Below the pieces are notes generated by a model that made no database searches, had not been told where the DNA came from, and saw only the letters and a program-made list of their open reading frames with translations. Of a stretch of DNA of 64,000 bases, positions 1 through 64,000 are shown piece by piece. Origin of the DNA: Eledone cirrhosa (Eukaryota); assembly GCA_964016885.1 (NCBI GenBank), contig OZ024744.1:132804001-132868000 (forward strand), written 5' to 3'. A program made the translations under genes and the position numbers. Numbering within the stretch: the stretch's first letter is position 1; each line of letters opens with the position of its first letter.

Positions 1-1450
1 AACCCCAACTTAACTTAACCCCAACTTAACTTAACCCCATCTTAACTTAACCCCAACTTAATTTAACCTCAACTTAACTTAACCCCAACTTAATTTAACC
101 CCAACTTAACTTAACCCCAACTTAACTTAACCCCAACTTAATTAAACCCAACTTAAATTAACCCCAACTTAACTTACCCCCAACTTAACTTACCCCCAAC
201 TTAACTTAACCACAACCTAACTTAACCCCAACTTAACTTAACCCCAACTTAACCTAACCCCAACTTAACTTAACCCCAACTTAATTTAACCCCAACTTAA
301 CTCAACCCAACTTAACTTAACCCTAACTTAACCCCAAATTAACTTAACCCCAACTTAACTTAACCCCATCTTAACTTACCCCCAACTTAACTACCACCAA
401 CTTACCTTACCCCCAACTTAACTTAACCCCAACTTAACTTAACCCCAACTTAACTTAACCCCAACTTAATTTAACCCCAACTTAACTTAACCCCAACTTA
501 ATTTAACCCCAACTTAACTTAACCCCAACTTAAATTAACCCCAACTTAATTTGACCCAACTTAAATTAACCCCAACTTAACTTACCCCCAACTTAACTTA
601 CCCCCAACTTAACTTAACCCCAACTTAACTTAACCCCAACTTAACTTAACCCCACTTAACTTAAACCCAACTTAAGTACCCCCAACTTAAGTTAACCCCA
701 AATTAACTCAACCCCAACTTAACTTAACCCCAACTTAACTTAACCCCAACTTAATTAGACCCAACTTAAATTAACCCCAACTTAACTTACCCCCAACTTA
801 ACTTACCCCCAACTTAATTTAACCACAACCTAACTTAACCCCAACTTAACTTAACCCCAACTTAACTTAACCCCAACTTAACTTAACCCCACTTAACTTA
901 AACCCAACTTAAGTACCCCCAACTTAAGTTAACCCCAACTTAACTTAACCCCAACTTAACTTAACCCCAACTCAACTTAACCCCGCCTTAACTTAACCCC
1001 AACTTAACTTAACCCCAACTTAACTTAACCCCAACTTAACTTAACCACAATCTAACTTAACCCCAACTTAACTTAACCCCAACTTAAATTAACCCCAACT
1101 TAACTTAACCCCAATTTAACTTAACCCCAACTTAACTTAACCCCAACTTAACTTAACCGCAACTTAACTTAACCCCAACTTAAAATAACCCCAACTTAAC
1201 TTAACCCCAACTTAACTCAACCCCAACTTAACTTAACCCTAACTTAACTTAACCCCAACTTAACTTAACCCCAACTTAACTTACCCCCAACTTAACTTAC
1301 CCCCAACTTAACTTTCCCCCAACTTAAATTAACCCCAACTTAACTTAACCCCAACTTAACTTAACCCCAACTTAACTTAACCCCAACTTAACTTAACCCC
1401 AACTTAAATCACCCGCAACTTAACTTAACCCCAACTTAAATTAACCCCAA
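1..1450 (+). repeat. Left-edge sub-domain of the satellite with its own variant set and short internal duplications
   Basis: Variants such as AAGTACCCCC (674 and 911, 237 bp apart), AACCACAACCT (about 209 and 821) and frequent ACCCCC hexamers occur here. I did not see the first two in the rest of the window. The right boundary is approximate. Confidence 0.6.
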
Positions 1451-4400
1451 CTTAACTTAACCCCAACTTAAATAAACCCCAACTTAAATTAACCCCAACT
1501 TAACTTAACCCCAACTTAACTTAACCCCAACTTAACTCAGCCCCAACTTAACTTAGCCCCAACTTAACTTAACCCCAACTTAACTTAACCCCAACTTAAC
1601 TTAACCCCAACTTAACTTATCCCCAACTTAACTTAACCCTAACTTAACTTAAACCCAACTTAACTTAACCCCAACTTCAATTATCCCCAACTTAACTTAT
1701 CCCCAACTTAACTTAACCCCAACTTAACTTAACCCCAACTTAATTTAACCCCAACTTAACTTAACCCCAACTTAACTTAACCCCAACTTAACTTAACCAC
1801 AAATTAACTTAACCCCAACTTAACTTAACCCCAACTTAACTTAACCCCAACTTAACTTAAACCTAACTTAACTTAACCCCAACTTAACCCCAACTTAACT
1901 TGACCCCAACTTAACTTAACCCCAACTTAACTCAACCCCAACTTAACTTAACCCCAACTTAACTCAGCCCCAAATTAACTCAGCCCCAACTTAACTTAGC
2001 CCCAACTTACCTTAACACCAACTTAACTTAACCCCAACTTAACTTAACCCCAACTTAACTTAACCCCAACTTAACTTATCCCCAACTTAACTGAACCCCA
2101 ACTTAACTTAACCCCAACTTAATATAACCCCAACTTAACTTAACCCCAACTTAACTCAACCCCAACTTAAATTAACCCCAACTTAAATTAACCTCAACTT
2201 AACTTAACACCAACTTAACGTAACCCCAACTTAACTTAACCCCAACTTAACTTAAACCTAACTTAACTTAACCCCAACTTAACCCCAACTTAACTTGACC
2301 CCAACTTAACTTAACCTCAACTTAACTTAACCCCAACTTAACTTAACCACATCTTAACTTAACCCCAACTTAACTTAACCCCAACTTAACTTAACCCCAA
2401 CTTAAATTAACCCCAACTTAACTTAACCCCAACTTAACTTAACCCCGACTTAACTTAACCCCAACTTAACTTAACCCCAACTTAACTTAACCCCAACTTA
2501 ACTTAACCACAAATTAACTTAACCCCAACTTAACTTAACCCCAACTTAACTTAACCCCAACTTAACTTAACCCCAACTTAATTAAACCTAACCTAACTTA
2601 ACCCCAACTTAACCCCAACTTAACTTGACCCCAACTTAACTTAACCCCAACTTAACTCAACCCCAACTTAACTTAACCCCAACTTAACTCAGCCCCAACT
2701 TAACTCAGCCCCAACTTAACTTAGCCACAACTTAACTTAACACCAACTTAACTTAACCCCAACTTAACTTAACCCCAACTTAACTTAACCCCAACTTAAC
2801 TTATCCCCAACTTAACTGAACCCCAACTTAACTTAACCCCAACTTAATATAACCCCAACTTAACTCAACCCCAACTTAAATTAACCCCAACTTAACTTAT
2901 CCCCAACTTAACTTAACCCCAACTTAATTAACCCCAACTTAAATTAACCCCAACTTAACTTAACACCAACTTAACGTAACCCCAACTTAACTTAACCCCA
3001 ACTTAACTTAAACCTAACTTAACTTAACCCCAACTTAACCCCAACTTAACTTGACCCCAACTTAACTTAACCCCAACTTAACTCAACCCCAACTTAACTT
3101 AACCCCAACTTAACTTAGCCCCAACTTAACTTAACACCAACTTAACTTAACCCCAACTGAACTTAACCCCAACTTAACTTAACCCCAACTTAACTTATCC
3201 CCAACTTAACTGAACCCCAACTTAACTGAACCCCAACTTAAATTAACCCCAACTTAACTTAACCCCAACTTAACTTAACCCCAACTTAACTCAACACCAA
3301 CTTAACTCAACCCCAACTTAACTCAACCCCAATTTAACTCAACCCCAACTTAACTCAACCCCAACTTAACTTAACCCCAACTTAACTGAACCCTAACTTA
3401 ACTTAACCCCGACTTAACTTAACCCCGACTTAACTTAACCCCAACTTAACTTAACCCCAACTTAACTCAACCCCAACTTAACTTAACCCCAACTTAATTT
3501 AACCCCATCTTAACCCCAACTTAACTTAACCCCAACTTAACTGAACCCCAACTTAATTTAACACCAACTTAACGTAACCCCAACTTAAATAAACCCCAAC
3601 TTAAATTAACCCCAACTTAACTTAACCCCAACTTAACTTAACCCCAACTTAACTTAACCCCAACTTAACTTACCCCCAACTTAACTTAACCCCAACTTAA
3701 CTTAAACCCAACTTAACTTAACCCCAACTTAACTTAACCCCAACTTAATTTAACGCCAACTTAACTTAACCTCAACTTAACTTAACCCCAACTTAACTTA
3801 ACCCCAACTTAACTTAACCCCAACTTAATTTAACCCCAACTTAACTTAACCTCAACTTAACTTAGCCCCAACTTAACTTAACCCCAACTTAAATTAACCC
3901 CAACTTAACTTAACCCCAACTTAACTTAACCCCGACTTAACTTAACCCCAACTTAACTTAACCGCAACTTAACTTAACCCCAACTTAACTTAACCACAAA
4001 TTAACTTAACCCCAACTTAACTTAACCCCAACTTAACTTAACCCCAACTTAACTTAACCCCAACTTAACTTAAACCTAACTTAACTTAACCCCAACTTAA
4101 CCCCAACTTAACTTGACCCCAACTTAACTTAACCCCAACTTAACTCAACCCCAACTTAACTTAACCCCAACTTAACTCAGCCCCAACTTAACTCAGCCCC
4201 AACTTAACTTAGCCCCAACTTAACTTAACACCAACTTAACTTAACCCCAACTTAACTTAACCCCAACTTAACTTAACCCCAACTTAACTTATCCCCAACT
4301 TAACTGAACCCCAACTTAACTCAACCCCAACTTAAATTAACCCCAACTTAACTTAACCCCAACTTAACTTAACCCCAACTTAATTAACCCCAACTTAAAT

Positions 4401-9461: not shown

Positions 9462-9634
9462 GGGCTTAAGTTAAGTTGGGGCTAAGTTAAGTTGGGGTTA
9501 AGTCAAGTTGGAAGTTGTGGTTGAGTGAAGTTGGGGTTAAGTTAAGTTGGGGTTGAGTGAAGTTGGGGTTAAGTTAAGTTGGGGTTGAGTTACGTTGGGG
9601 TTGAGTGAAGTTGGGGTTAAGTTAAGTTGGGGTT
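9462..9634 (-). repeat. 173-bp inverted satellite island, copy 1 (TACG allele, upstream C6 run)
   Basis: The strand switches at CCCCGACTTA|GGGCTTAAG and switches back at GGGGTT|AACCCC. It contains the diagnostic AAGTCAAGTTGGAAGTTGTGG and GAGTTACGTT. Confidence 0.97.
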
Positions 9635-12600
9635 AACCCCAACTTAACTTAACCCCAACTTAACTTAACCCCAACTTAACTTAACCCCAACTTAACTTAA
9701 CCCCAACATAACTTAACCCCAACTTAAATTAACCCCAACTTAACTTAAACTCAACTTAACTAACCAACTTAACTTAACCCCAACTTAACTTAACCCCAAC
9801 TTAACTTAACCCCAACTTAACTTAACCCCAACTTAACTTAACCCCAACTTAAATTAACCCCAACTTAACTTAACCCCAACTTAACTTAACCCCGACTTAA
9901 CTTAACCCCAACTTAACTTAACCCCAACTTAACTTAGCCCCAACTTAACTTAGCCCCAACTTAACTTAGCCCCAACTTAACTTAACCCCAACTTAACATA
10001 ACCGCACCTTAACTTAACCTCAACTTAACTTAACTGCAACTTAACTTAACCCCAACTTAACTTAACCCCAACTTAACTCAACACCAACTTAACTCAACCC
10101 CAACTTAACTCAACCCCAATTTAACTCAACCCCAACTTAACTCAACCCCAACTTAACTTAACCCCAACTTAACTGAACCCTAACTTAACTTAACCCCGAC
10201 TTAAATTAAGCCCAACTTAACTTAACCCCAACTTAACTCAGCCCCAACTTAACTTAGCCCTAACTTAACTTAACCCCAACTTAACTTAACCCCAACTTAA
10301 TTAACCCCAACTTAAATTAACCCCAACTTAACTTAACACCAACTTAACATAACCCCATCTTAAATAAACCCCAACTTAAATTAACCCCAACTTAACTTAA
10401 CCCCAACTTAACTTAACCCCAACTTAACTCAGCCCCAACTTAACTTAGCCCCAACTTAACTTAACCCCAACTTAACTTAACCCCAACTTAACTTAACCCC
10501 AACTTAACTTATCCCCAACTTAACTTAACCCCAACTTAACTTAAACCCAACTTAACTTAACCCCAACTTAAACTATCCCCAACTTAACTTATCCCCAACT
10601 TACCTTAACCCCAACTTAACTTAACCCCAACTTAACTTAACCCCAACTTAATTTAACCCCAACTTAACTTAACCTCAACTTAACTTAACCCCAACTTAAC
10701 TTAACCCCAACTTAACTTAACCCCAACTTAAATTAGCCCCAACTTAACTTAACCCCAACTTAAATTAACCCCAACTTAACTTAACCCCAACTTAACTTAA
10801 CCCCGACTTAAATTAACCCCAACTTAACTTAACCCCAACTTAACTTAACCCCAACTTAACTTAACCACAAATTAAATTAACCCCAACTTAACTTAACCCC
10901 AACTTAACTTAACCCCAACTTAACTTAACCCCAACTTAACTTAACCCCAACTTAACTTAAACCTAACTTAACTTAACCCCAACTTAACCCCAACTTAACT
11001 TGACCCCAACTTAACTTAACCCCAACTTAACTCAACCCCAACTTAACTTAACCCCAACTTCACTCAGCCCCAACTTAACTCAGCCCCAACTTAACTTAGC
11101 CCCAACTTAACTTAACACCAACTTAACTTAACCCCAACTTAACTTAACCCCAACTTAACTTAACCCCAACTTAACTCAACCCCAACTTAACTTAACCCCA
11201 ACTTAACTCAGCCCCAACTTAACTCAGCACCAACTTAACTTAGCCCCAACTTAACTTAACACCAACTTAACTGAACCCCAACTTAACTTAACCCCAACTT
11301 AATATAACCCCAACTTAACTTAACCCCAACTTAACTCAACCCCAACTTAAATTAACCCCAACTTAACTTAACCCCAACTTAACTTAACCCCAACTTAATT
11401 AACCCCAACTTAAATTAACCCCAACTTAACTTAACACCAACTTAACGTAACCCCAACTTAACTTAACCCCAACTTAACTTAAACCTAACTTAACTTAACC
11501 CCAACTTAACCCCAACTTAACTTGACCCCAACTTAACTTAACCCCAACTTAACTCAACCCCAACTTAACTTAACCCCAACTTAACTCAGCCCCAACTTAA
11601 CTCAGCCCCAACTTAACTTAGCCCCAACTTAACTTAACACCAACTTAACTTAACCCCAACTTAACTTAACCCCAACTTAACTTAACCCCAACTTAACTTA
11701 TCCCCAACTTAACTGAACCCCAACTTAACTGAACCCCAACTTAACTTAACCCCAACTTAACTTAACCCCAACTTAACTTAAACCCAACTTAACTTAACCC
11801 CAACTTAAATTATCCCCAACTTAACTTATCCCCAACTTAACTTAACCCCAACTTAACTTAACCCCAACTTAACTTAACCCCAACTTAATTTAACCCCAAC
11901 TTAACTTAACCTCAACTTAACTTAACCCCAACTTAACTTAACCCCATCTTAACTTAACCCCAACTTAACTTAACCCCAACTTAACTTAACCCCAACTTAA
12001 ATTAACCCCAACTTAACTTAACCCCAACTTAACTTAACCCCGACTTAACTTAACCCCAACTTAACTTAACCCCAACTTAAGTTAACCCCAACTTAACCCC
12101 AACTTAACTTGACCCCAACTTAACTTAACCCCAACTTAACTCAACCCCAACTTAACTTAACCCCAACTTAACTCAGCCCCAACTTAACTCAGCCCCAACT
12201 TAACTTAGCCCCAACTTAACTTAACACCAACTTAACTTAACCCCACCTTAACTTAACCCCAACTTAACTTAACCCCAACTTAACTTATCCCCAACTTAAC
12301 TGAACCCCAACTTAACTCAACCCCAACTTAAATTAACCCCAACTTAACTTAACCCCAACTTAACTTAACCCCAACTTAATTAACCCCAACTTAAATTAAC
12401 CCCAACTTAACTTAACACCAACTTAACGTAACCCCAACTTAATTTAACCCCAACTTAAATTAACCCCAACTTAACTTGCCCCCAACTTAACTTACCCCCA
12501 ACGTAACTTAACCCCAACTTAATTTTACCCCAACTTAATTTAACCCCAACTTAACTTAACCCCAAATTAACTCAACCCCAACTTAACTCAACCCCAACTT

Positions 12601-13087: not shown

Positions 13088-13260
13088 GGGCTTAAGTTAA
13101 GTTGGGGCTAAGTTAAGTTGGGGTTAAGTCAAGTTGGAAGTTGTGGTTGAGTGAAGTTGGGGTTAAGTTAAGTTGGGGTTGAGTGAAGTTGGGGTTAAGT
13201 TAAGTTGGGGTTGAGTTAAGTTGGGGTTGAGTGAAGTTGGGGTTAAGTTAAGTTGGGGTT
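13088..13260 (-). repeat. 173-bp inverted satellite island, copy 2 (TAAG allele)
   Basis: Same junctions and length as copy 1, with GAGTTAAGTT in place of GAGTTACGTT. Confidence 0.97.
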
Positions 13261-16200
13261 AACCCCAACTTAACTTAACCCCAACTTAACTTAACCCCAA
13301 CTTAACTTAACCCCAACTTAACTTAACCCCAACATAACTTAACCCCAACTTAAATTAACCCCAACTTAACTTAAACTCAACTTAACTAACCAACTTAACT
13401 TAACCCCAACTTAACTTAACCCCAACTTAACTTAACCCCAACTTAACTTAACCCCAACTTAACTTAACCCCAACTTAAATTAACCCCAACTTAACTTAAC
13501 CCCAACTTAACTTAACCCCGACTTAACTTAACCCCAACTTAACTTAACCCCAACTTAACTTAGCCCCAACTTAACTTAGCCCCAACTTAACTTAGCCCCA
13601 ACTTAACTTAACCCCAACTTAACATAACCGCACCTTAACTTAACCTCAACTTAACATAACTGCAACTTAACTTAACCCCAACTTAACTTAACCCCAACTT
13701 AACTCAACACCAACTTAACTCAACCCCAACTTAACTCAACCCCAATTTAACTCAACCCCAAGTTAACTCAACCCCAACTTAACTTAACCCCAACTTAACT
13801 GAACCCTAACTTAACTTAACCCCGACTTAAATTAAGCCCAACTTAACTTAACCCCAACTTAACTCAGCCCCAACTTAACTTAGCCCTAACTTAACTTAAC
13901 CCCAACTTAACTTAACCCCAACTTAATTAACCCCAACTTAAATTAACCCCAACTTAACTTAATACCAACTTAACGTAACCCCATCTTAAATAAACCCCAA
14001 CTTAAATTAACCCCAACTTAACTTAACCCCAACTTAACTTAACCCCAACTTAACTCAGCCCCAACTTAACTTAGCCCCAACTTAACTTAACCCCAACTTA
14101 ACTTAACCCCAACTTAACTTAACCCCAACTTAACTTATCCCCAACTTAACTTAACCCCAACTTAACTTAAACCCAACTTAACTTAACCCCAACTTAAACT
14201 ATCCCCAACTTAACTTATCCCCAACTTAACTTAACCCCAACTTAACTTAACCCCAACTTAACTTAACCCCAACTTAATTTAACCCCAACTTAACTTAACC
14301 TCAACTTAACTTAACCCCAACTTAACTTAACCCCAACTTAACTTAACCCCAACTTAAATTAGCCCCAACTTAACTTAACCCCAACTTAAATTAACCCCAA
14401 CTTAACTTAACCCCAACTTAACTTAACCCCGACTTAAATTAACCCCAACTTAACTTAACCCCAACTTAACTTAACCCCAACTTAACTTAACCACAAATTA
14501 ACTTAACCCCAACTTAACTTAACCCCAACTTAACTTAACCCCAACTTAACTTAACCCCAACTTAACTTAACCCCAACTTAACTTAAACCTAACTTAACTT
14601 AACCCCAACTTAACCCCAACTTAACTTGACCCCAACTTAACTTAACCCCAACTTAACTCAACCCCAACTTAACTTAACCCCAACTTCACTCAGCCCCAAC
14701 TTAACTCAGCCCCAACTTAACTTAGCCCCAACTTAACTTAACACCAACTTAACTTAACCCCAACTTAACCCCAACTTAACTTAACCCCAACTTAACTCAA
14801 CCCCAACTTAACTTAACCCCAACTTAACTCAGCCCCAACTTAACTTAGCCCCAACTTAACTTAGCCCCAACTTAACTTAACACCAACTTAACTTAACCCC
14901 AACTTAACTTAACCCCAACTTAACTTAACCCCAACTTAACTTATCCCCAACTTAACTGAACCCCAACTTAACTTAACCCCAACTTAATATAACCCCAACT
15001 TAACTTAACCCCAACTTAACTCAACCCCAACTTAAATTAACCCCAACTTAACTTAACCCCAACTTAACTTAACCCCAACTTAATTAACCCCAACTTAAAT
15101 TAACCCCAACTTAACTTAACACCAACTTAACGTAACCCCAACTTAACTTAACCCCAACTTAACTTAAACCTAACTTAACTTAACCCCAACTTAACCCCAA
15201 CTTAACTTGACCCCAACTTAACTTAACCCCAACTTAACTCAACCCCAACTTAACTTAACCCCAACTTAACTCAGCCCCAACTTAACTCAGCCCCAACTTA
15301 ACTTAGCCCCAACTTAACTTAACACCAACTTAACTTAACCCCAACTTAACTTAACCCCAACTTAACTTAACCCCAACTTAACTTATCCCCAACTTAACTG
15401 AACCCCAACTTAACTGAACCCCAACTTAAATTAACCCCAACTTAACTTAACCCCAACTTAACTTAACCCCAACTTAACTCAACGCCAACTTAACTCAACC
15501 CCAACTTAACTCAACCCCAATTTAACTCAACCCCAACTTAACTCAACCCCAACTTAACTTAACCCCAACTTAACTGAACCCTAACTTAACTTAACCCCGA
15601 CTTAACTTAACCCCGACTTAACTTAACCCCAACTTAACTTAACCCCAACTTAACTTAACCCCAACTTAACTTAACCCCAACTTAATTTAACCCCATCTTA
15701 ACCCCAACTTAACTTAACCCCAACTTAACTGAACCCCAACTTAAATTAACCCCAACTTAAATAAACCCCAACTTAACTTAACCCCAACTTAACTTAACCC
15801 CAACTTAACTTAACCCCAACTTAACTCAGCCCCAACTTAACTTAGCCCCAACTTAACTTAACCCCAACTTAACTTAACCCCAACTTAACTTAACCCCAAC
15901 TTAACTTAACCCCAACTTAACTTAACCCCAATTTAACTTAAACCCAACTTAACTTAACCCCAACTTAAATTATCCCCAACTTAACTTATCCCCAACTTAA
16001 CTTAACCCCAACTTAACTTAACCCCAACTTAACTTAACCCCAACTTAATTTAACCCCAACTTAACTTAACCTCAACTTAACTTAACCCCAACTTAACTTA
16101 ACCCCATCTTAACTTAACCCCAACTTAACTTAACCCCAACTTAACTTAACCCCAACTTAAATTAACCCCAACTTAACTTAACCCCAACTTAACTTAACCC

Positions 16201-19200
16201 CGACTTAACTTAACCCCAACTTAACTTAACCCCAACTTAACTTAACCCCAACTTAACCCCAACTTAACTTGAACCCAACTTAACTTAACCCCAACTTAAC
16301 TTAAACCTAACTTAACTTAACCCCAACTTAACCCCAACTTAACTTGACCCCAACTTAACTTAACCCCAACTTAACTCAACCCCAACTTAACTTAACCCCA
16401 ACTTAACTCAGCCCCAACTTAACTCAGCCCCAACTTAACTTAGCCCCAACTTAACTTAACACCAACTTAACTTAACCCCAACTTAACTTAACCCCAACTT
16501 AACTTAACCCCAACTTAACTTATCCCCAACTTAACTCAACCCCAACTTAACTCAACCCCAACTTAAATTAACCCCAACTTAACTTAACCCCAACTTAACT
16601 TAACCCCAACTTAATTAACCCCAACTTAAATTAACCCCAACTTAACTTAACACCAACTTAACGTAACCCCAACTTAATTTAACCCCAACTTAAATTAACC
16701 CCAACTTAACTTGCCCCCAACTTAACTTACCCCCAACTTAACTTAACCCCAACTTAATTTAACCCCAACTTAATTTAACCCCAACTTAACTTAAACCCAA
16801 CTTAACTTAACCCCAACTTAACTTAACCCCAAATTAACTCAACCCCAACTTAACTCAACCCCAACTTAACTTAACCCCAACTTAACTTAACCACAAATTA
16901 AATTAGCCCCAACTTAAATTAACCCCAACTTAACTCAACCACAACTTAACTTAACCCCGACTTAACTTAACCCCACCTTAACTTAACCTCAACTTAACTT
17001 AACTGCAACTTAATTTAACCCCAACTTAACTTAACCCCAACTTAACTCAACACCAACTTAACTCAACCCCAACTTAACTCAACGCCAATTTAACTCAACC
17101 CCAACTTAACTCAACCCCAACTTAACTTAACCCCGACTTAAATTAACCCCGACTTAACTTAACCCCAACTTAACTCAACCCCAACTTAACTTAACCCCAA
17201 CTTAACTCAACCCCAACTTAACTTAACCCCAACTTAACTCAGCCCCAACTTAACTTAGCCCCAACTTAACTTAGCCCCAACTTAACTTAACACCAACTTA
17301 ACTTAACCCCAACTTAACTTAACCCCAACTTAACTTAACCCCAACTTAACTTATCCCCAACTTAACTGAACCCCAACTTAACTTAACCCCAACTTAATAT
17401 AACCCCAACTTAACTTAACCCCAACTTAACTCAACCCCAACTTAAATTAACCCCAACTTAACTTAACCCCAACTTAACTTAACCCCAACTTAATTAACCC
17501 CAACTTAAATTAACCCCAACTTAACTTAACACCAACTTAACGTAACCCCAACTTAACTTAACCCCAACTTAACTTAAACCTAACTTAACTTAACCCCAAC
17601 TTAACCCCAACTTAACTTGACCCCAACTTAACTTAACCCCAACTTAACTCAACCCCAACTTAACTTAACCCCAACTTAACTCAGCCCCAACTTAACTCAG
17701 CCCCAACTTAACTTAGCCCCAACTTAACTTAACACCAACTTAACTTAACCCCAACTTAACTTAACCCCAACTTAACTTAACCCCAACTTAACTTATCCCC
17801 AACTTAACTGAACCCCAACTTAACTGAACCCCAACTTAAATTAACCCCAACTTAACTTAACCCCAACTTAACTTAACCCCAACTTAACTCAACACCAACT
17901 TAACTCAACCCCAACTTAACTCAACCCCAATTTAACTCAACCCCAACTTAACTCAACCCCAACTTAACTTAACCCCAACTTAACTGAACCCTAACTTAAC
18001 TTAACCCCGACTTAACTTAACCCCGACTTAACTTAACCCCAACTTAACTTAACCCCAACTTAACTTAACCCCAACTTAACTTAACCCCAACTTAATTTAA
18101 CCCCATCTTAACCCCAACTTAACTTAACCCCAACTTAACTGAACCCCAACTTAAATTAACCCCAACTTAAATAAACCCCAACTTAACTTAACCCCAACTT
18201 AACTTAACCCCAACTTAACTTAACCCCAACTTAACTCAGCCCCAACTTAACTTAGCCCCAACTTAACTTAACCCCAACTTAACTTAACCCCAACTTAACT
18301 TAACCCCAACTTAACTTAACCCCAACTTAACTTAACCCCAATTTAACTTAAACCCAACTTAACTTAACCCCAACTTAAATTATCCCCAACTTAACTTATC
18401 CCCAACTTAACTTAACCCCAACTTAACTTAACCCCAACTTAACTTAACCCCAACTTAATTTAACCCCAACTTAACTTAACCTCAACTTAACTTAACCCCA
18501 ACTTAACTTAACCCCATCTTAACTTAACCCCAACTTAACTTAACCCCAACTTAACTTAACCCCAACTTAAATTAACCCCAACTTAACTTAACCCCAACTT
18601 AACTTAACCCCGACTTAACTTAACCCCAACTTAACTTAAACCTAACTTAACTTAACCCCAACTTAACCCCAACTTAACTTGACCCCAACTTAACTTAACC
18701 CCAACTTAACTCAACCCCAACTTAACTTAACCCCAACTTAACTCAGCCCCAACTTAACTCAGCCCCAACTTAACTTAGCCACAACTTAACTTAACACCAA
18801 CTTAACTTAACCCCAACTTAACTTAACCCCAACTTAACTTAACCCCAACTTAACTTATCCCCAACTTAACTGAACCCCAACTTAACTTAACCCCAACTCA
18901 ATATAACCCCAACTTAACTTAACCCCAACTTAACTCAACCCCAACTTAAATTAACCCCAACTTAACTTATCCCCAACTTAACTTAACCCCAACTTAATTA
19001 ACCCCAACTTAAATTAACCCCAACTTAACTTAACACCAACTTAACGTAACCCCAACTTAAATAAACCCCAACTTAAATTAACCCCAACTTAACTTAACCC
19101 CAACTTAACTTAACCCCAACTTAACTCAGCCCCAACTTAACTTAGCCCCAACTTAACTTAACCCCAACTTAACTTAACCCCAACTTAACTTAACCCCAAC

Positions 19201-22030: not shown

Positions 22031-22203
22031 GGGCTTAAGTTAAGTTGGGGCTAAGTTAAGTTGGGGTTAAGTCAAGTTGGAAGTTGTGGTTGAGTGAAGT
22101 TGGGGTTAAGTTAAGTTGGGGTTGAGTGAAGTTGGGGTTAAGTTAAGTTGGGGTTGAGTTACGTTGGGGTTGAGTGAAGTTGGGGTTAAGTTAAGTTGGG
22201 GTT
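22031..22203 (-). repeat. 173-bp inverted satellite island, copy 3 (TACG allele, upstream AAGCTT)
   Basis: Same junctions and length as copy 1. Confidence 0.97.
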
Positions 22204-26974: not shown

Positions 26975-27147
26975 GGGCTTAAGTTAAGTTGGGGCTAAGT
27001 TAAGTTGGGGTTAAGTCAAGTTGGAAGTTGTGGTTGAGTGAAGTTGGGGTTAAGTTAAGTTGGGGTTGAGTGAAGTTGGGGTTAAGTTAAGTTGGGGTTG
27101 AGTTACGTTGGGGTTGAGTGAAGTTGGGGTTAAGTTAAGTTGGGGTT
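26975..27147 (-). repeat. 173-bp inverted satellite island, copy 4 (TACG allele, upstream AAGCTT)
   Basis: Same junctions and length as copy 1, located 4944 bp after copy 3. Confidence 0.97.
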
Positions 27148-31124: not shown

Positions 31125-31297
31125 GGGCTTAAGTTAAGTTGGGGCTAAGTTAAGTTGGGGTTAAGTCAAGTTGGAAGTTGTGGTTGAGTGAAGTTGGGGT
31201 TAAGTTAAGTTGGGGTTGAGTGAAGTTGGGGTTAAGTTAAGTTGGGGTTGAGTTAAGTTGGGGTTGAGTGAAGTTGGGGTTAAGTTAAGTTGGGGTT
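31125..31297 (-). repeat. 173-bp inverted satellite island, copy 5 (TAAG allele)
   Basis: Same junctions and length as copy 2. It shares the downstream markers AACATAACTGC, CAAGTTAACTC and AATACC with copies 2 and 6. Confidence 0.97.
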
Positions 31298-44400: not shown

Positions 44401-44462
44401 AGCCCCAACTTAACTTAACCCCAACTTAACTTAACCCCAACTTAACTTAACCCCAACTTAAC

Positions 44463-47400: not shown

Positions 47401-50400
47401 CTTAACTTAACCCCGACTTAACTTAACCCCAACTTAACTTAACCCCAACTTAACTTAACCCCAACTTAACCCCAACTTAACTTGACCCCAACTTAACTTA
47501 ACCCCAACTTAACTCAACCCCAACTTAACTTAACCCCAACTTAACTCAGCCCCAACTTAACTCAGCCCCAACTTAACTTAGCCCCAACTTAACTTAACAC
47601 CAACTTAACTTAACGCCACCTTAACTTAACCCCAACTTAACTTAACCCCAACTTAACTTATCCCCAACTTAACTGAACCCCAACTTAACTTAACCCCAAC
47701 TTAATATAACCCCAACTTAACTTAACCCCAACTTAACTCAACCCCAACTTAAATTAACCCCAACTTAACTTAACCCCAATTTAACTTAAACCCAACTTAA
47801 CTTAACCCCAACTTAAATTATCCCCAACTTAACTTATCCCCAACTTAACTTAACCCCAACTTAACTTAACCCCAACTTAACTTAACCCCAACTTAATTTA
47901 ACCCCAACTTAACTTAACCTCAACTTAACTTAACCCCAACTTAACTTAACCCCATCTTAACTTAACCCCAACTTAACTTAACCCCAACTTAACTTAACCC
48001 CAACTTAAATTAACCCCAACTTAACTTAACCCCAACTTAACTTAACCCCGACTTAACTTAACCCCAACTTAACTTAACCCCAACTTAACTTAACCCCAAC
48101 TTAACCCCAACTTCACTTGACCCCAACTTAACTTAACCCCAACTTAACTCAACCCCAACTTAACTTAACCCCAACTTAACTCAGCCCCAACTTAACTCAG
48201 CCCCAACTTAACTTAGCCCCAACTTAACTTAACACCAACTTAACTTAACCCCACCTTAACTTAACCCCAACTTAACTTAACCCCAACTTAACTTATCCCC
48301 AACTTAACTGAACCCCAACTTAACTTAACCCCAACTTAATATAACCCCAACTTAACTTAACCCCAACTTAACTCAACCCCAACTTAAATTAACCCCAACT
48401 TAACTTAACCCCAACTTAAGTTAACCCCAACTTAATTAACCCCAACTTAAATTAACCCCAACTTAACTTAACACCAACTTAACGTAACCCCAACTTAATT
48501 TAACCCCAACTTAAATTAACCCCAACTTAACTTGCCCCCAACTTAACTTACCCCCAACGTAACTTAACCCCAACTTAATTTAACCCCAACTTAATTTAAC
48601 CCCAACTTAACTTAACCCCAAATTAACTCAACCCCAACTTAACTCAACCCCAACTTAACTTAACCCCAACTTAACTTAACCCCAACTTAACTTAACCACA
48701 AATTAACTTAGCCCCAACTTAAATTAACCCCAACTTAACTCAACCACAACTTAACTTAACCCCGACCTAACTTAACCCCAACTTAACTTAACCCCAACTT
48801 AACTTAACCCCAACTTCACTCAACCTCAACTTAACTCAACCCCAACTTAACCCCAACTTAACTTAACCCCAACTTAAATTAACCACAAAGTTAACTTAAC
48901 CCCAATTTAAATTAACCCCAACTTAACTTAACCCCAACTTAACATAACCACCACTTAATTAACCCCAACTTAACTCAACCCCAACTTAACTTAACCCCGA
49001 CTTAACTTAAACCTAACTTAACTTAACCCCAACTTAACCCCAACTTAACTTGACCCCAACTTAACTTGACCCCAACTTAACTTAACCTCAACTTAACTTA
49101 ACCCCAACTTAACCTAACCCCATCTTAACTTAACCCCAACTTAACTTAACCCCAACTTAACTTAACCCCAACTTAAATTAACCCCAACTTAACTTAACCC
49201 CAACTTAACTTAACCCCGACTTAACTTAACCCCAACTTAACTTAACCCCAACTTAACTTAACCCCAACTTAACTTAACCACAAATTAACTTAACCCCAAC
49301 TTAACTTAACCCCAACTTAACTTAACCCCAACTTAACTTAACCCCAACTTAACTTAACCCCAACTTAACTGAAACCTAACCTAACTTAACCCCAACTTAA
49401 CCCCAATTTAACTTGACCCCAACTTAACTTAACCCCAACTTAACTCAACCCCAACTTAACTTAACCCCAACTTAACTCAGCCCCAACTTAACTCAGCCCC
49501 AACTTAACTTAGCCACAACTTAACTTAACACCAACTTAACTTAACCCCAACTTAACTTAACCCCAACTTAACTTAACCCCAACTTAACTTATCCCCAACT
49601 TAACGGAACCCCAACTTAACTTAACCCCAACTTAATATAACCCCAACTTAACTTAACCCCAACTTAACTCAACCCCAACTTAAATTAACCCCAACTTAAC
49701 TTATCCCCAACTTAACTTAACCCCAACTTAATTAACCCCAACTTAAATTAACCCCAACTTAACTTAACACCAACTTAACGTAACCCCAATTTAACTTAAC
49801 CCCAACTTAACTTAAACCTAACTTAACTTAACCCCAACTTAACCCCAACTTAACTTGACCCCAACTTAACTTAACCCCAACTTAACTCAACCCTAACTTA
49901 ACTTAACCCCAACTTAACTCAGCCCCAACTTAACTCAGCCCCAACTTAACTTAGCCCCAACTTAACTTAACACCAACTTAACTTAACCCCAACTTAACTT
50001 ATCCCCAACTTAACTGAACCCCAACTTAACTGAACCCCAACTTAAATTAACCCCAACTTAACTTAACCCCAACTTAACTTAACCCCAACTTAACTCAACA
50101 CCAACTTAACTCAACCCCAACTTAACTCAACCCCAATTTAACTCAACCCCAACTTAACTCAACCCCAACTTAACTTAACCCCAACTTAACTGAACCCTAA
50201 CTTAACTTAACCCCGACTTAACTTAACCCCGACTTAACTTAACCCCAACTTAACTTAACCCCAACTTAACTTAACCCCAACTTAACTTAACCCCAACTTA
50301 ATTTAACCCCATCTTAACCCCAACTTAACTTAACCCCAACTTAACTGAACCCCAACTTAACTTAACCCCAACTTAAATAAACCCCAACTTAACTTAACCC

Positions 50401-51070
50401 CAACTTAACTTAACCCCAACTTAACTTAACCCCAACTTAACTCAGCCCCAACTTAACTTAGCCCCAACTTAACTTAACCCCAACTTAACTTAACCCCAAC
50501 TTCACTTAACCCCAACTTAACTTAACCCCAACTTAACTTAACCCCAACTTAATTTAACCCCAACTTAACTTAACCTCAACTTAACTTAACCCCAACTTAA
50601 CTTAACCCCATCTTAACTTAACCCCAACTTAACTTAACCCCAACTTAACTTAACCCCAACTTAAATTAACCCCAACTTAACTTAACCCCAACTTAACTTA
50701 ACCCCGACTTAACTTAACCCCAACTTAACTTAACCCCAACTTAACTTAACCCCAACTTAACCCCAACTTAACTTGACCCCAACTTAACTTAACCCCAACT
50801 TAACTCAACCCCAACTTAACTTAACCCCAACTTAACTCAGCCCCAACTTAACTCAGCCCCAACTTAACTTAGCCCCAACTTAACTTAACACCAACTTAAC
50901 TTAACGCCACCTTAACTTAACCCCAACTTAACTTAACCCCAACTTAACTTATCCCCAACTTAACTGAACCCCAACTTAACTTAACCCCAACTTAATATAA
51001 CCCCAACTTAACTTAACCCCAACTTAACTCAACCCCAACTTAAATTAACCCCAACTTAACTTAACCCCAA
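44463..51070 (+). repeat. Near-identical tandem duplication, period 3291 bp
   Basis: Private markers recur at +3291: TTCACTTGAC 44821/48112, AACGGAACCC 46311/49602 and TAACGCCACC 47611/50902. The junction overlap is about 47754-47779. Confidence 0.93.
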
Positions 51071-53196: not shown

Positions 53197-55240
53197 TAAG
53201 TCGGGGTTAAGTTAAGTTGGCGTTAAGTTAAGTTAGGCTTAACTTAAGTTGGGGTTCAGTTAAGTTGGGGGGTAAGTTAAGTTGGGGGTAAGTTAAGTTG
53301 GGGTTAAGTTAAGTTGCGGTTAAGTTGGGGTTAAGTTAAGTTAGGGTTAAGTTAAGTTGGGGTTGAGTTAAGTTGGGGTTAATTAAGTGGTGGTTATGTT
53401 AAGTTGGGGTTAAGTTAAGTTGGGGTTAATTTAAATTGGGGTTAAGTTAACTTTGTGGTTAATTTAAGTTGGGGTTAAGTTAAGTTGGGGTTAAGTTGGG
53501 GTTGAGTTAAGTTGGGGTTGAGTGAAGTTGGGGTTAAGTTAAGTTGGGGTTAAGTTAAGTTGGGGTTAAGTTAGGTCGGGGTTAAGTTAAGTTGTGGTTG
53601 AGTTAAGTTGGGGTTAATTTAAGTTGGGGCTAAGTTAATTTGTGGTTAAGTTAAGTTGGGGTTAAGTTAAGTTGGGGTTAAGTTAAGTTGGGGTTGAGTT
53701 AAGTTGGGGTTGAGTTAATTTGGGGTTAAGTTAAGTTGGGGTTAAATTAAGTTGGGGTTAAATTAAGTTGGGGTTAAGTTACGTTGGGGGTAAGTTAAGT
53801 TGGGGGCAAGTTAAGTTGGGGTTAATTTAAGTTGGGGTTAAATTAAGTTGGGGTTACGTTAAGTTGGTGTTAAGTTAAGTTGGGGTTAATTTAAGTTGGG
53901 GTTAATTAAGTTGGGGTTAAGTTAAGTTGGGGTTAAGTTAAGTTGGGGTTAATTTAAGTTGGGGTTATATTAAGTTGGGGTTCAGTTAAGTTGGGGATAA
54001 GTTAAGTTGGGGTTAAGTTAAGTTGGGGTTAAGTTAAGGTGGGGTTAAGTTAAGTTGGTGTTAAGTTAAGTTGGGGCTAAGTTAAGTTGGGGCTGAGTTA
54101 AGTTGGGGCTGAGTTAAGTTGGGGTTAAGTTAAGTTGGGGTTGAGTTAAGTTGGGGTTAAGTTAAGTTGGGGTCAAGTTAAGTTGGGGTTAAGTTGGGGT
54201 TAAGTTAAGTTGGGGTTAAGTTAAGTTGGGGTTAAGTTAAGTCGGGGTTAAGTTAAGTTGGGGTTAAGTTAAGTTGGGGTTAATTTAAGTTGGGGTTAAG
54301 TTAAGTTGGGGTTAAGTTAAGTTGGGGTTAAGTTAAGATGGGGTTAAGTTAAGTTGGGGTTAAGTTAAGTTGAGGTTAAGTTAAGTTGGGGTTAAATTAA
54401 GTTGGGGTTAAGTTAAGTTGGGGTTAAGTTAAGTTGGGGTTAAGTTAAGTTGGGGATAAGTTAAGTTGGGGATAATTTAAGTTGGGGTTAAGTTAAGTTG
54501 GGTTTAAGTTAAGTTGGGGTTAAGTTAAGTTGGGGTTAAGTTAAGTTGGGGTTGAGTTAAGTTGGGGTTAATTAAGTGGTGGTTATGTTAAGTTGGGGTT
54601 AAGTTAAGTTGGGGTTAATTTAAATTGGGGTTAAGTTAACTTTGTGGTTAATTTAAGTTGGGGTTAAGTTAAGTTGGGGTTAAGTTGGGGTTGAGTTAAG
54701 TTGAGGTTGAGTGAAGTTGGGGTTAAGTTAAGTTGGGGTTAAGTTAAGTTGGGGTTAAGTTAGGTCGGGGTTAAGTTAAGTTGTGGTTGAGTTAAGTTGG
54801 GGTTAATTTAAGTTGGGGCTAAGTTAATTTGTGGTTAAGTTAAGTTGGGGTTAAGTTAAGTTGGGGTTAAGTTAAGTTGGGGTTGAGTTAAGTTGGGGTT
54901 GAGTTAATTTGGGGTTAAGTTAAGTTGGGGTTAAATTAAGTTGGGGTTAAATTAAGTTGGGGTTAAGTTACGTTGGGGGTAAGTTAAGTTGGGGGCAAGT
55001 TAAGTTGGGGTTAATTTAAGTTGGGGTTAAATTAAGTTGGGGTTACGTTAAGTTGGTGTTAAGTTAAGTTGGGGTTAATTCAAGTTGGGGTTAATTAAGT
55101 TGGGGTTAACTTAAGTTGGGGTTAAGTTAAGTTGGGGTTAATTTAAGTTGGGGTTGATTTAAGTTGGGGTTAAGTTAAGTTGGGGTTATATTAAGTTGGG
55201 GTTAAGTTAAGTTGGGGTTCAGTTAAGTTGGGGATAAGTT
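53197..55240 (-). repeat. 2044-bp inverted (G-rich on +) satellite block
   Basis: Continuous TTAAGTTAAGTTGGGG repeats run from TAAGTCGGGG (53197) to the palindromic junction GATAAGTT|AACTTAAC (55240/55241). Confidence 0.98.
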
Positions 55241-55334
55241 AACTTAACCCCAACTTAACTGAACCCCAACTTAAATTAACCCCAACTTAAATAAACCCCA
55301 ACTTAACTTAACCCCAACTTAACTTAACCCCAAC
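55241..55334 (+). repeat. Right copy of the 94-bp direct repeat flanking the large inverted block
   Basis: Matches 52971-53064 at offset 2270 and begins exactly at the strand-switch point. Confidence 0.8.
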
Positions 55335-57220: not shown

Positions 57221-57393
57221 GGGCTTAAGTTAAGTTGGGGCTAAGTTAAGTTGGGGTTAAGTCAAGTTGGAAGTTGTGGTTGAGTGAAGTTGGGGTTAAG
57301 TTAAGTTGGGGTTGAGTGAAGTTGGGGTTAAGTTAAGTTGGGGTTGAGTTAAGTTGGGGTTGAGTGAAGTTGGGGTTAAGTTAAGTTGGGGTT
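57221..57393 (-). repeat. 173-bp inverted satellite island, copy 6 (TAAG allele)
   Basis: Same junctions and length, with flanking markers as in copies 2 and 5. Confidence 0.97.
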
Positions 57394-60300
57394 AACCCCA
57401 ACTTAACTTAACCCCAACTTAACTTAACCCCAACTTAACTTAACCCCAACTTAACTTAACCCCAACATAACTTAACCCCAACTTAAATTAACCCCAACTT
57501 AACTTAAACTCAACTTAACTAACCAACTTAACTTAACCCCAACTTAACTTAACCCCAACTTAACTTAACCCCAACTTAACTTAACCCCAACTTAACTTAA
57601 CCCCAACTTAAATTAACCCCAACTTAACTTAACCCCAACTTAACTTAACCCCGACTTAACTTAACCCCAACTTAACTTAACCCCAACTTAACTTAGCCCC
57701 AACTTAACTTAGCCCCAACTTAACTTAGCCCCAACTTAACTTAACCCCAACTTAACATAACCGCACCTTAACTTAACCTCAACTTAACATAACTGCAACT
57801 TAACTTAACCCCAACTTAACTTAACCCCAACTTAACTCAACACCAACTTAACTCAACCCCAACTTAACTCAACCCCAATTTCACTCAACCCCAAGTTAAC
57901 TCAACCCCAACTTAACTTAACCCCAACTTAACTGAACCCTAACTTAACTTAACCCCGACTTAAATTAAGCCCAACTTAACTTAACCCCAACTTAACTCAG
58001 CCCCAACTTAACTTAGCCCTAACTTAACTTAACCCCAACTTAACTTAACCCCAACTTAATTAACCCCAACTTAAATTAACCCCAACTTAACTTAATACCA
58101 ACTTAACGTAACCCCATCTTAAATAAACCCCAACTTAAATTAACCCCAACTTAACTTAAACCCAACTTAACTTAACCCCAACTTAACTCAGCCCCAACTT
58201 AACTTAGCCCCAACTTAACTTAACCCCAACTTAACTTAACCCCAACTTAACTTAACCCCAACCTAACTTATCCCCAACTTAACTTAACCCCAACTTAACT
58301 TAAACCCAACTTAACTTAACCCCAACTTAAACTATCCCCAACTTAACTTATCCCCAACTTAACTTAACCCCAACTTAACTTAACCCCAACTTAACTTAAC
58401 CCCAACTTAATTTAACCCCAACTTAACTTAACCTCAACTTAACTTAACCCCAACTTAACTTAACCCCAACTTAACTTAACCCCAACTTAAATTAGCCCCA
58501 ACTTAACTTAACCCCAACTTAAATTAACCCCAACTTAACTTAACCCCAACTTAACTTAACCCCGACTTAAATTAACCCCAACTTAACTTAACCCCAACTT
58601 AACTTAACCCCAACTTAACTTAACCACAAATTAACTTAACCCCAACTTAACTTAACCCCAACTTAACTTAACCCCAACTTAACTTAACCCCAACTTAACT
58701 TAAACCTAACTTAACTTAACCCCAACTTAACCCCAACTTAACTTGACCCCAACTTAACTTAACCCCAACTTAACTCAACCCCAACTTAACTTAACCCCAA
58801 CTTCACTCAGCCCCAACTTAACTCAGCCCCAACTTAACTTAGCCCCAACTTAACTTAACACCAACTTAACTTAACCCCAACTTAACCCCAACTTAACTTA
58901 ACCCCAACTTAACTCAACCCCAACTTAACTTAACCCCAACTTAACTCAGCCCCAACTTAACTCAGCCCCAACTTAACTTAGCCCCAACTTAACTTAACAC
59001 CAACTTAACTTAACCCCAACTTAACTTAACCCCAACTTAACTTAACCCCAACTTAACTTATCCCCAACTTAACTGAACCCCAACTTAACTTAACCCCAAC
59101 TTAATATAACCCCAACTTAACTTAACCCCAACTTAACTCAACCCCAACTTAAATTAACCCCAACTTAACTTAACCCCAACTTAACTTAACCCCAACTTAA
59201 TTAACCCCAACTTAAATTAACCCCAACTTAACTTAACACCAACTTAACGTAACCCCAACTTAACTTAACCCCAACTTAACTTAAACCTAACTTAACTTAA
59301 CCCCAACTTAACCCCAACTTAACTTGACCCCAACTTAACTTAACCCCAACTTAACTCAACCCCAACTTAACTTAACCCCAACTTAACTCAGCCCCAACTT
59401 AACTCAGCCCCAACTTAACTTAGCCCCAACTTAACTTAACACCAACTTAACTTAACCCCAACTTAACTTAACCCCAACTTAACTTAACCCCAACTTAACT
59501 TATCCCCAACTTAACTGAACCCCAACTTAACTGAACCCCAACTTAAATTAACCCCAACTTAACTTAACCCCAACTTAACTTAACCCCAACTTAACTCAAC
59601 ACCAACTTAACTCAACCCCAACTTAACTCAACCCCAATTTAACTCAACCCCAACTTAACTCAACCCCAACTTAACTTAACCCCAAATTAACTGAACCCTA
59701 ACTTAACTTAACCCCGACTTAACTTAACCCCGACTTAACTTAACCCCAACTTAACTTAACCCCAACTTAACTTAACCCCAACTTAACTTAACCCCAACTT
59801 AATTTAACCCCATCTTAACCCCAACTTAACTTAACCCCAACTTAACTGAACCCCAACTTAAATTAACCCCAACTTAAATAAACCCCAACTTAACTTAACC
59901 CCAACTTAACTTAACCCCAACTTAACTTAACCCCAACTTAACTCAGCCCCAACTTAACTTAGCCCCAACTTAACTTAACCCCAACTTAACTTAACCCCAA
60001 CTTAACTTAACCCCAACTTAACTTAACCCCAACTTAACTTAACCCCAATTTAACTTAAACCCAACTTAACTTAACCCCAACTTAAATTATCCCCAACTTA
60101 ACTTATCCCCAACTTAACTTAACCCCAACTTAACTTAACCCCAACTTAACTTAACCCCAACTTAATTTAACCCCAACTTAACTTAACCTCAACTTAACTT
60201 AACCCCAACTTAACTTAACCCCATCTTAACTTAACCCCAACTTAACTTAACCCCAACTTAACTTAACCCCAACTTAAATTAACCCCAACTTAACTTAACC

Positions 60301-61572: not shown

Positions 61573-61745
61573 GGGCTTAAGTTAAGTTGGGGCTAAGTTA
61601 AGTTGGGGTTAAGTCAAGTTGGAAGTTGTGGTTGAGTGAAGTTGGGGTTAAGTTAAGTTGGGGTTGAGTGAAGTTGGGGTTAAGTTAAGTTGGGGTTGAG
61701 TTAAGTTGGGGTTGAGTGAAGTTGGGGTTAAGTTAAGTTGGGGTT
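61573..61745 (-). repeat. 173-bp inverted satellite island, copy 7 (TAAG allele, short shared flanks)
   Basis: Same junctions and length. The usual flanks are present only from about 61270 to about 61950. Confidence 0.97.
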
Positions 61746-62940
61746 AACCCCAACTTAACTTAACCCCAACTTAACTTAACCCCAACTTAACTTAACCCCA
61801 ACTTAACTTAACCCCAACATAACTTAACCCCAACTTAAATTAACCCCAACTTAACTTAAACTCAACTTAACTAACCAACTTAACTTAACCCCAACTTAAC
61901 TTAACCCCAACTTAACTTAACCCCAACTTAACTTAACCCCAACTTAACTTAACCCCGACTTAAATTAACCCCGACTTAACTTAACCCCAACTTAACTCAA
62001 CCCCAACTTAACTTAACCCCAACTTAACTTAACCCCAACTTAACTTAACCCCAACTTAAATTAACCCCAACTTAACTTAAACTCAACTTAACTAACCAAC
62101 TTAACTTAACCCCAACTTAACTTGACCCCAACTTAACTTAACCCCAACTTAACTTAAACCCAACTTAACTTAACCCCAACTTAACTTAACCCCAACTTAA
62201 CTTAACCCCAACTTAACCCCAAATTAAATTAACCTCAACTTAACTTAACCCCAACTTAACTTAGCCCCAACTTAACTTAGCCCCAACTTAACTTAGCCCC
62301 AACTTAACTTAACCCCAACTTAACTTAACCGCACCTTAACTTAACCTCAACTTAACTTAACTGCAACTTAACTTAACCCCAACTTAACTTAACCCCAACT
62401 TAACTCAAAACCAACTTAACTCAACCCCAACTTAACTCAACCCCAATTTAACTCAACCCCAACTTAACTCAACCCCAACTTAACTTAACCCCAACTTAAC
62501 TGAACCCTAACTTAACTTAACCCCAACTTAACTTAACCCCAACTTAATTTAACCCCAACTTAACTTAACCTCAACTTAACTTAACCCCAACTTAACTTAA
62601 CCCCATCTTAACTTAACCCCAACTTAACTTAACCCCAACTTAACTTAACCCCAACTTAAATTAACCCCAACTTAACTTAACCCCAACTTAACTTAACCCC
62701 GACTTAACTTAACCCCAACTTAACTTAACCCCAACTTAACTTAACCCCAACTTAACCCCAACTTAACTTGACCCCAACTTAACTTAACCCCAACTTAACT
62801 CAACCCCAACTTAACTTAACCCCAACTTAACTCAGCCCCAACTTAACTCAGCCCCAACTTAACTTAGCCCCAACTTAACTTAACACCAACTTAACTTAAC
62901 CCCACCTTAACTTAACCCCAACTTAACTTAAGCCCAACTT

Positions 62941-64000
62941 AACTTATCCCCAACTTAACTGAACCCCAACTTAACTTAACCCCAACTTAATATAACCCCA
63001 ACTTAACTTAACCCCAACTTAAATCAACCCCAACTTAAATTAACCCCAACTTAACTTAACCCCAACTTAAGTTAACCCCAACTTAATTAACCCCAACTTG
63101 AATTAACCCCATCTTAACTTAACACCAACTTAACGTAACCCCAACTTAATTTAACCCCAACTTAAATTAACCCCAACTTAACTTGCCCCCAACTTAACTT
63201 ACCCCCAACGTAACCTAACCCCAACTTAATTTAACCCCAACTTAATTTAACCCCAACTTAACTTAACCCCAAATTAACTCAACCCCAACTTAACTCAACC
63301 CCAACTTAACTTAACCCCAACTTAACTTAACCCCAACTTAACTTAACCACAAATTAACTTAGCCCCAACTTAAATTAACCCCAACTTAACTCAACCACAA
63401 CTTAACTTAACCCCGACCTAACTTAACCCCAACTTAACTTAACCCCAACTTAACTTAACCCCAACTTCACTCAACCTCAACTTAACTCAACCCCAACTTA
63501 ACCCCAACTTAACTTAACCCCAACTTAAATTAACCACAAAGTTAACTTAACCCCAATTTAAATTAACCCCAACTTAACTTAACCCCAACTTAACATAACC
63601 ACCACTTAATTAACCCCAACTTAACTCAACCCCAACTTAACTTAACCCCAACTTAACTTAACCCCAACTTAACTTAAACCCAACTTAACTTAACCCCAAC
63701 TTAAATTATCCCCAACTTAACTTATCCCCAACTTAACTTAACCCCAACTTAACTTAACCCCAACTTAACTTAACCCCAACTTAATTTAACCCCAACTTAA
63801 CTTAACCTCAACTTAACTTAACCCCAACTTAACTTAACCCCATCTTAACTTAACCCCAACTTAACTTAACCCCAACTTAACTTAACCCCAACTTAAATTA
63901 ACCCCAACTTAACTTAACCCCAACTTAACTTAACCCCGACTTAACTTAACCCCAACTTAACTTAACCCCAACTTAACTTAACCCGAACTTAACCCCAACT
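62941..64000 (+). repeat. Forward-orientation partner of the inverted block (reverse complement of 54181-55240)
   Basis: Matching coordinates sum to 118181, for example the G of AACTTGAATT at 63100 pairs with the C at 55081. The rare AAATCAACC, AAGTT and TTGAATT variants are shared. I noticed three mismatches in 1060 bp. Confidence 0.93.

Follow-up and report, generated by a model that had tools for sequence, protein, structure and literature searches.

A 16-bp G-rich satellite in an internal megabase block, probably derived from the host TTAGGG telomere repeat

The 64,000-nt stretch of DNA analysed here (the window; C28:132,804,001-132,868,000 in a 3.0-Gb assembly) is filled by a single satellite with a 16-bp unit, TTAAG TTAAG TTGGGG on its G-rich strand, which belongs to a block of 8.38 Mb ending 1.15 Mb short of the contig end. 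This array is almost certainly not a telomere. On balance we favour an internal megabase satellite that arose from TTAGGG, the terminal repeat of the host, grew through the copying of kilobase-sized blocks and is probably heterochromatic.

Tandem Repeats Finder (TRF) returned one array at positions 1-63,993, with a period of 16, 4,033.9 copies, 90% matches and 2% indels, which bears out the satellite unit proposed in the initial annotation. The plus strand of the window is C-rich and the G-rich unit is read from the minus strand; by wraparound alignment, 1,621 of 4,055 monomers (40%) were exact. A pattern of three perfect units matched the genome 29,906 times versus 0 for a reversed control pattern, so a chance origin of the array is out. 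It is also unlikely that the 16-mer repeat itself is an assembly artefact, because its words were present at a share of 0.54-0.67 in three sequencing runs of one sample. By prediction only, four units form a G-quadruplex (-11.7 versus -5.5 kcal/mol for a hairpin).

Variants were counted in perfect context within the window. The recurring 11-bp monomers noticed in the initial annotation, one base away from the Bombus telomere motif TTAGGTTGGGG, are real yet minor (82 versus 1,368 16-mers), and a 21-mer was found once, as was the complete Bombus motif anywhere in the window. The rare TTAGG pentamers noticed at the same time, including that at position 251, were also recovered, filling 4 of at least 2,567 first pentamer slots and none of the 1,403 second slots; TTAAT (206) and TTGAG (194) were far commoner in the first slot, and the TTAGG pentamers look like rare point mutants, not relics. 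TTAGGG filled 10 of about 1,240 hexamer slots. Across the window monomers, variation was concentrated in the first pentamer, with conservation of 79-95% per site compared with 96-99% in the second. A conserved second and a variable first pentamer were likewise observed in C3 and in other C28 samples, and the conservation could reflect either shared ancestry or a constraint from protein binding.

The window carries block-wise copying on top of older monomer divergence (Table 1). Duplicated blocks of about 1-5 kb (up to 4.8 kb) are 98.7-100% identical over a monomer divergence of about 5.5%, and exact 120-mers occurring at least twice cover 95% of the window. Seven 171-bp inverted islands and one 2.04-kb inversion make up eight strand inversions. 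Their right-hand junctions are palindromes on TTAA, a self-complementary word present twice per unit, and the left end of the 2.04-kb inversion is an island junction re-used in reverse; positions 53,056-53,966 match 8,692-9,602 in reverse complement at 100% identity. Telomerase is unable to copy variants block by block, and the array probably grew by block copying instead. The repeat is thus satellite DNA in the usual sense, a megabase head-to-tail tandem array homogenised in blocks.

Table 1 Features of the window (positions 1 to 64,000).
Feature	Position	Strand	Remark
16-bp satellite	1..64000	-	G-rich strand TTAAG-TTAAG-TTGGGG; belongs to 8.38-Mb block C28:126,967,455-135,348,074
TTAGG point variant, first pentamer slot	251..255	-	one of 4 in perfect context
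Inverted island copy 1 of 7, 171 bp	9466..9636	+	right junction a perfect palindrome centred on TTAA
Inverted island copy 2, 171 bp	13092..13262	+	
Inverted island copy 3, 171 bp	22035..22205	+	
Inverted island copy 4, 171 bp	26979..27149	+	
Inverted island copy 5, 171 bp	31129..31299	+	
Inverted island copy 6, 171 bp	57225..57395	+	
Inverted island copy 7, 171 bp	61577..61747	+	
2.04-kb inversion	53203..55242	+	right junction palindromic at TTAA
Largest tandem block duplication	18036..27828	.	18,036-22,884 and 22,980-27,828; 4,849 bp, 99.96% identical
Tandem block duplication	44463..51070	.	44,463-47,779 and 47,754-51,070; 3,317 bp, 100% identical

The C28 block is about 130 times the size of the window, and the 16-mer family makes up about 6% of C28. 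The 16-mer dominated all 20 spaced 10-kb samples of the block, with a divergence of 4.8-6.5%; an AT-rich 37-bp satellite was included in 3 of the 20 and alone made up one separate 2-kb sample. No layered age gradient, from diverged edges to a uniform core, was seen across the spaced samples. The share of window 64-mers was 0.90 at 132.87 Mb and 0.87 at 133.7 Mb, compared with 0.03-0.09 at 127-130 Mb, 0.05 on C3 and 0.015 on C18, which points to local variant domains. The G-strand lies on the plus strand in most of the block, and the window sits in an opposite-strand stretch that begins at a 200-N gap 10 kb upstream (C28:132,793,543-742). After the gap there is about 1.3 kb of noisy C/A-rich sequence resembling a low-quality read end. 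Because of this gap and the noisy sequence, neither the orientation of the window's block nor the overall length is certain; the window stretch has variants in common with the G-strand region at 133.7 Mb, and its orientation may be a scaffolding choice.

The left edge of the C28 block and an edge at C18:4,801,865 are the same junction in a broken C2H2 zinc-finger gene, with flanks that are 97% alike; array and flank were therefore duplicated together between the two chromosomes. At both edges the G-strand runs from the gene toward the nearer end, the polarity of a healed break, yet the 3-bp microhomology present there fits recombination equally well. From the alignments, the edge is best read as a putative insertion or break junction and not as the source of the repeat. 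An origin of the 16-mer from the zinc-finger gene was considered and rejected, the other genomic copies of the gene aligning only from the junction onward. The gene belongs to a large family spread over many chromosomes; the C18 copy has one stop codon, and the C28 copy has two repeats fewer.

Descent of the 16-mer from the host TTAGGG repeat is probable in light of its neighbours and of unit comparison. At C3:184,769,169 the 16-mer abuts, with no gap, a degenerate CCCTAA array at least 219 kb long, and TTGGGG is the commonest variant hexamer in parts of that array (8/112 and 10/111 in two samples). At the distal edge of the C28 block the 16-mer is joined, without a change of strand, to a 24-kb array (C28:135,348,075-135,371,668; 72-73% matches) of a 32-bp unit, TTGGGG TTGGGG TTTAAG TCTAAG TCTAAG GC, and one TTAGGG tract on C28 runs in phase into this 32-mer. 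The 32-mer is more diverged than the 16-mer, presumably older, and has other sites on C8 (30.9-31.06 Mb, 51% of C8) and C18 (13.1 Mb). Unit similarity was measured by wraparound scores against random units and shuffles, in tests chosen after seeing the sequence. Of 1,500 random units and 1,500 shuffles, 1 and 35, respectively, attained the score of the 16-mer against TTAGGG, 0 and 16 that against TTAGG, and none that against the 32-mer. For the 32-mer, the score against TTAGGG was reached by 0 of 800 random units and 2 of 800 shuffles, and that against TTAGG by 10 and 102, respectively. The TTAGGG-likeness of the 16-mer (0.375) was higher than that of any of the 26 other local tandem units, the best of which scored 0.25.

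Several results weigh against this descent. When random units were given the internal x-x-y structure of the 16-mer, 94 of 3,000 attained its score, and TTAGGG ranked only 13th for the 16-mer and 14th for the 32-mer among 350 hexamer classes. The TTAGGG score of the 32-mer (0.26) is barely above that of an unrelated local unit (0.25), and for the 16-mer by itself the fit to TTAGG is no worse than that to TTAGGG (16 versus 35 of 1,500 shuffles). Neither the 32-mer (65.6 kb) nor the TTAGGG arrays yielded intermediate units: GGGTTAAGTTAAG was absent from the former, and samples of the latter held TTAAGTT only 0-4 times each. On C3 the two arrays meet tail to tail and on opposite strands, which makes their junction a rearrangement, not a gradual transition. 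Unrelated AT-rich 37-bp and 227-bp satellites also adjoin the 16-mer, so that its adjacency to TTAGGG may only reflect satellite clustering, and the one TTAGGG tract within the 32-mer may have been inserted during repair.

These points leave room for an ordinary satellite of unrelated origin, with a telomere likeness that is due to chance and junctions made by clustering and by recombination at TTAA/GTT microhomology, which we consider possible but clearly less probable than not. Such a satellite would sit well with likeness at the level of about 3-4% under the strict nulls, with the lack of intermediate units between TTAGGG and the 16-mer, with 16-mer junctions to AT-rich and 227-bp satellites and a zinc-finger gene, and with a genome rich in unrelated local satellites (the 26 units scored). 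Against it, two related units of 16 and 32 bp are both TTAGGG-like, the 32-mer has a hexamer build and fits TTAGGG better than TTAGG, and a TTAGGG tract enters the 32-mer in phase. Descent from the host TTAGGG is the reading we retain. The initial annotation's proposal of a telomere-derived satellite amplified to at least 64 kb stands as regards an amplified internal block, now 8.38 Mb; its telomeric descent is moderately supported, with host TTAGGG the likely source.

Beyond C28, the family was observed on few chromosomes. The assembly has four giant chromosomes (443, 416, 379 and 379 Mb), and the remaining ones are smaller, to a minimum of 22 Mb. Eight-unit perfect runs number 32 genome-wide, every one of them on C28, and the first 100 listed of 705 six-unit perfect runs fell on C3 (8), C18 (22) and C28 (70) and nowhere else. 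Six-unit runs were thus found on 3 of 28 chromosome-scale contigs among the matches listed, with a composite form on C2, a count that collapsed or diverged arrays could escape; among the listed runs, the 16-mer does not show the one array per chromosome of a pan-centromeric repeat. The C3 array (184,769,169-185,379,739, 610 kb) ends at a gap and sits at 48.8% of C3, and C18 carries arrays around 4.80 Mb and at 9.9-10.4 Mb. On C2 (209.196-209.80 Mb, 50.3% of the chromosome) a 520-bp composite combines a variable 16-mer tract, with fixed variants of its own, and a 272-bp spacer. No three-unit 16-mer run was found on C1 by the genome pattern search; a degenerate TTAGGG array lies at 49.2% of C1 (217.89 Mb). 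This array and that at C3:184.55-184.77 Mb have a 7-base variant in common. Both degenerate arrays are likely fusion relics or an amplified internal telomeric satellite. A pattern search, itself over-specified, found no degenerate TTAGGG array on other chromosomes, and the rule that these repeats (16-mer or degenerate TTAGGG) mark midpoints is shown for C1-C3 only.

Two further satellites accompany the family. Copies of a 227-bp satellite are 97-99% identical between unplaced scaffolds C1456, C625, C1125 and C634; relatives occur on C1 (280.05 Mb), C2, C3, C4 (247.48 and 211.94 Mb) and C28, with a 196-bp variant on C4, and pieces of it make up the C2 composite's spacer and break into the telomeric array of C3. 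The 227-bp satellite is a good rival candidate for a centromere repeat. An AT-rich 36-46-bp satellite (about 19% GC, with A/T tracts) is interleaved with or lies beside the 16-mer on C28, C2 and C18 (12.9 Mb).

Whether the block is functional, chromosome-specific centromere DNA of C28 (and of C2, C3 and C18), telomere-derived or not and comparable with the Drosophila dodeca satellite, is doubtful. Its megabase size, higher-order blocks, inversions and local variant domains would suit a centromere, as would the near-midpoint sites of the 16-mer on C2 and C3, of degenerate TTAGGG on C1 and of the 32-mer on C8, and a strand-asymmetric G/C unit with a predicted G-quadruplex; dodeca itself carries a minor CENP-A domain, according to passages of PMC6516634. 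The restricted distribution speaks against it: six-unit runs among the matches listed were confined to C3, C18 and C28, C1 lacks even a three-unit run, and none of 12 samples of 1 kb each from the middle region of C4 (183-191 Mb, sparsely sampled) matched any of the families. The two C18 arrays are 5 Mb apart, divergence in the C28 block samples does not fall from the edges toward a uniform core, and unplaced scaffolds are filled by the 227-bp satellite (97-99% identity), which recurs on C1, C2, C3, C4 and C28. The 16-mer would be a testable candidate for centromere-flanking DNA.

A bolder version holds that cephalopod centromere DNA was born from telomere repeats, with the whole series retained, the giant-chromosome midpoints being fusion scars turned centromeres and the 8.4-Mb block being the centromere of C28. 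The members of such a series would be pure TTAGGG ends, degenerate internal TTAGGG, the hexameric 32-mer and the 16-mer, and a telomere-to-centromere model was put forward by Villasante et al. 2007, as cited in passages of PMC4620154; we nevertheless judge this version slightly more improbable still. If true, cephalopods would gain a first candidate centromere sequence, and that model could be tested directly.

The host is a mollusc, not a member of the arthropod TTAGG lineage, and likely an octopod. The mollusc-type hemocyanin domain PF14830 matched the genome 39 times, seven of them in a row in a C1 gene, and among single-unit chains one hemocyanin unit best matched 4YD9_C and 1JS8_A (659 and 650 bits; next 460), which we take to be squid and octopus proteins. 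Seven hemocyanin units mark octopods. Among 22 sampled contig ends (19 starts, 3 ends), four carried CCCTAA arrays in end polarity with 94-99% matches, at least 11.5 kb long on C7, C10 and C13 and about 10 kb on C9. Neither the 16-mer nor a TTAGG array was found at any of the 22 ends, and no 16-mer lay behind the C9 telomere; the telomeres of C7, C10 and C13 are longer than the 11.5 kb examined. Searches with RF00024 (telomerase RNA) and PF12009 (TERT) gave no matches, but their controls were silent too. According to passages of PMC13218726, no cephalopod telomere motif other than TTAGGG has been determined by experiment.

Mapping the array and scanning the contig ends, both suggested in the initial annotation, thus place the array internally and give TTAGGG as the true terminal motif. 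The proposed link to the insect TTAGG or Bombus TTAGGTTGGGG telomere fails in a mollusc with TTAGGG ends and an internal block, and so does the alternative of an undescribed terminal motif. The 16-mer also lacks the build of a telomerase product, being absent from the sampled ends, non-uniform, block-copied and interrupted by eight inversions. A telomerase-made terminal or compound insect-type motif is practically untenable: the minor 11-mer is one base from the Bombus motif, itself a true telomere repeat (in sections of PMC9841428), most of the C28 block points its G-strand toward the nearer end and the assembly shows no telomere at the distal end of C28, but the host is a mollusc with TTAGGG at 4/22 ends and the 16-mer at 0/22, 1.15 Mb of other DNA follows the block, its units are block-copied and 40% exact compared with 94-99% matches in true telomeres, and TTAGG variants in it stay at background level.

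An origin from the ribosomal DNA (rDNA) spacer was also considered and rejected, with 0 16-mer words in nine 10-kb stretches around 5.8S (C4, C12, C25). The only 16-mer near rDNA-derived repeats is a 230-bp tract at C28:125.49 Mb. At this site a tandem repeat (1-2340 of the local stretch) is pieced together from short fragments of the rRNA unit and has a histone 3' stem-loop match after it (3131-3175). A 171-bp rDNA spacer-like repeat was noted as well, the regions concerned being C28:125.49 and 126.0 Mb. C28 is 136.5 Mb long and is listed after the size-ordered C1-C27. It may be the sex chromosome (Z); passages of PMC10925132 contain no usable Z marker for C28.

Our preferred reading, an internal TTAGGG-derived satellite, suggests the following history. 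An internal telomeric array would have decayed, with TTGGGG as a common variant of the kind seen on C3, and a derived unit would have become fixed as the 32-mer and the 16-mer. Pieces would then have moved between chromosomes, as the zinc-finger junction common to C28 and C18 suggests, and been amplified by unequal exchange, conversion or template switching, not by telomerase, while fold-back at TTAA may have made the inversions. The array would now act as silent heterochromatic DNA. By analogy with known satellites, we think it fairly likely that it is heterochromatin without being the main kinetochore site.

The 16-mer satellite family is apparently undescribed. No description of it was found in the literature searched (for the 11-mer in either orientation, which appears only in papers titled on other subjects, and for work on the satellites, centromeres, telomeres or fusions of cephalopod chromosomes), with supplements and subscription papers outside the search, nor in passages of PMC12682272 and PMC9498494; similarly, no description of cephalopod centromere DNA was found in the literature searched. 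A false lead is removed, there being no new telomere motif, and in its place there is a mapped satellite family at the midpoints of two giant chromosomes beside relic telomere arrays. The family offers probes for fluorescence in situ hybridisation (FISH) and targets for CENP-A mapping, bearing on the location of cephalopod centromeres and on fusion scars as their seeds; should CENP-A be absent, it would be one more lineage-restricted satellite.

Among known systems, the Bombus repeat TTAGGTTGGGG is a true telomere repeat by its terminal position, FISH, the telomeric repeat amplification protocol (TRAP) and a matching template, as given in sections of PMC9841428. The likeness is confined to the minor 11-bp monomer, different by one base; the Bombus repeat is terminal, telomerase-made and hymenopteran, whereas the 16-mer is internal, block-copied and molluscan, and the resemblance is convergent. 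Heterochromatic interstitial telomeric sequences (het-ITS), for example in Chinese hamster, are large internal blocks of up to megabases near centromeres or fusion sites, which grow by unequal crossing-over, conversion, slippage or rolling circle (passages of PMC6410037). The blocks on C28 (8.38 Mb) and C3 (0.61 Mb) are likewise large and internal. Such sequences are, however, built of the host telomere repeat, unlike the 16-mer with its new fixed unit and TTAGGG in 10 of about 1,240 slots; the degenerate TTAGGG arrays at the C1 and C3 midpoints fit the class directly.

PaB6 of the plant Prospero autumnale, a pericentromeric satellite on several to all chromosomes with a 249-bp monomer containing seven intact TTAGGG (passages of PMC4273535), is similar in being a satellite with intact and degenerate TTAGGG in an organism with TTAGGG telomeres, in its case one with an unstable karyotype, as described there. 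It differs from the present 16-bp unit, which has no TTAGGG in its consensus and lies mostly on one chromosome. Drosophila dodeca, with an 11/12-bp unit and about 1 Mb on chromosome 3 (passages of PMC6516634 and PMC8122249), is, like the 16-mer, a short, strand-asymmetric and chromosome-specific satellite, and its C-strand is reported there to form i-motifs in vitro; its sequence is unrelated, and the CENP-A evidence in those passages belongs to dodeca only. By these comparisons, the 16-mer fails as a telomere repeat and as a strict interstitial telomeric sequence, and appears to behave like a het-ITS or telomere-derived satellite with a dodeca-like build.

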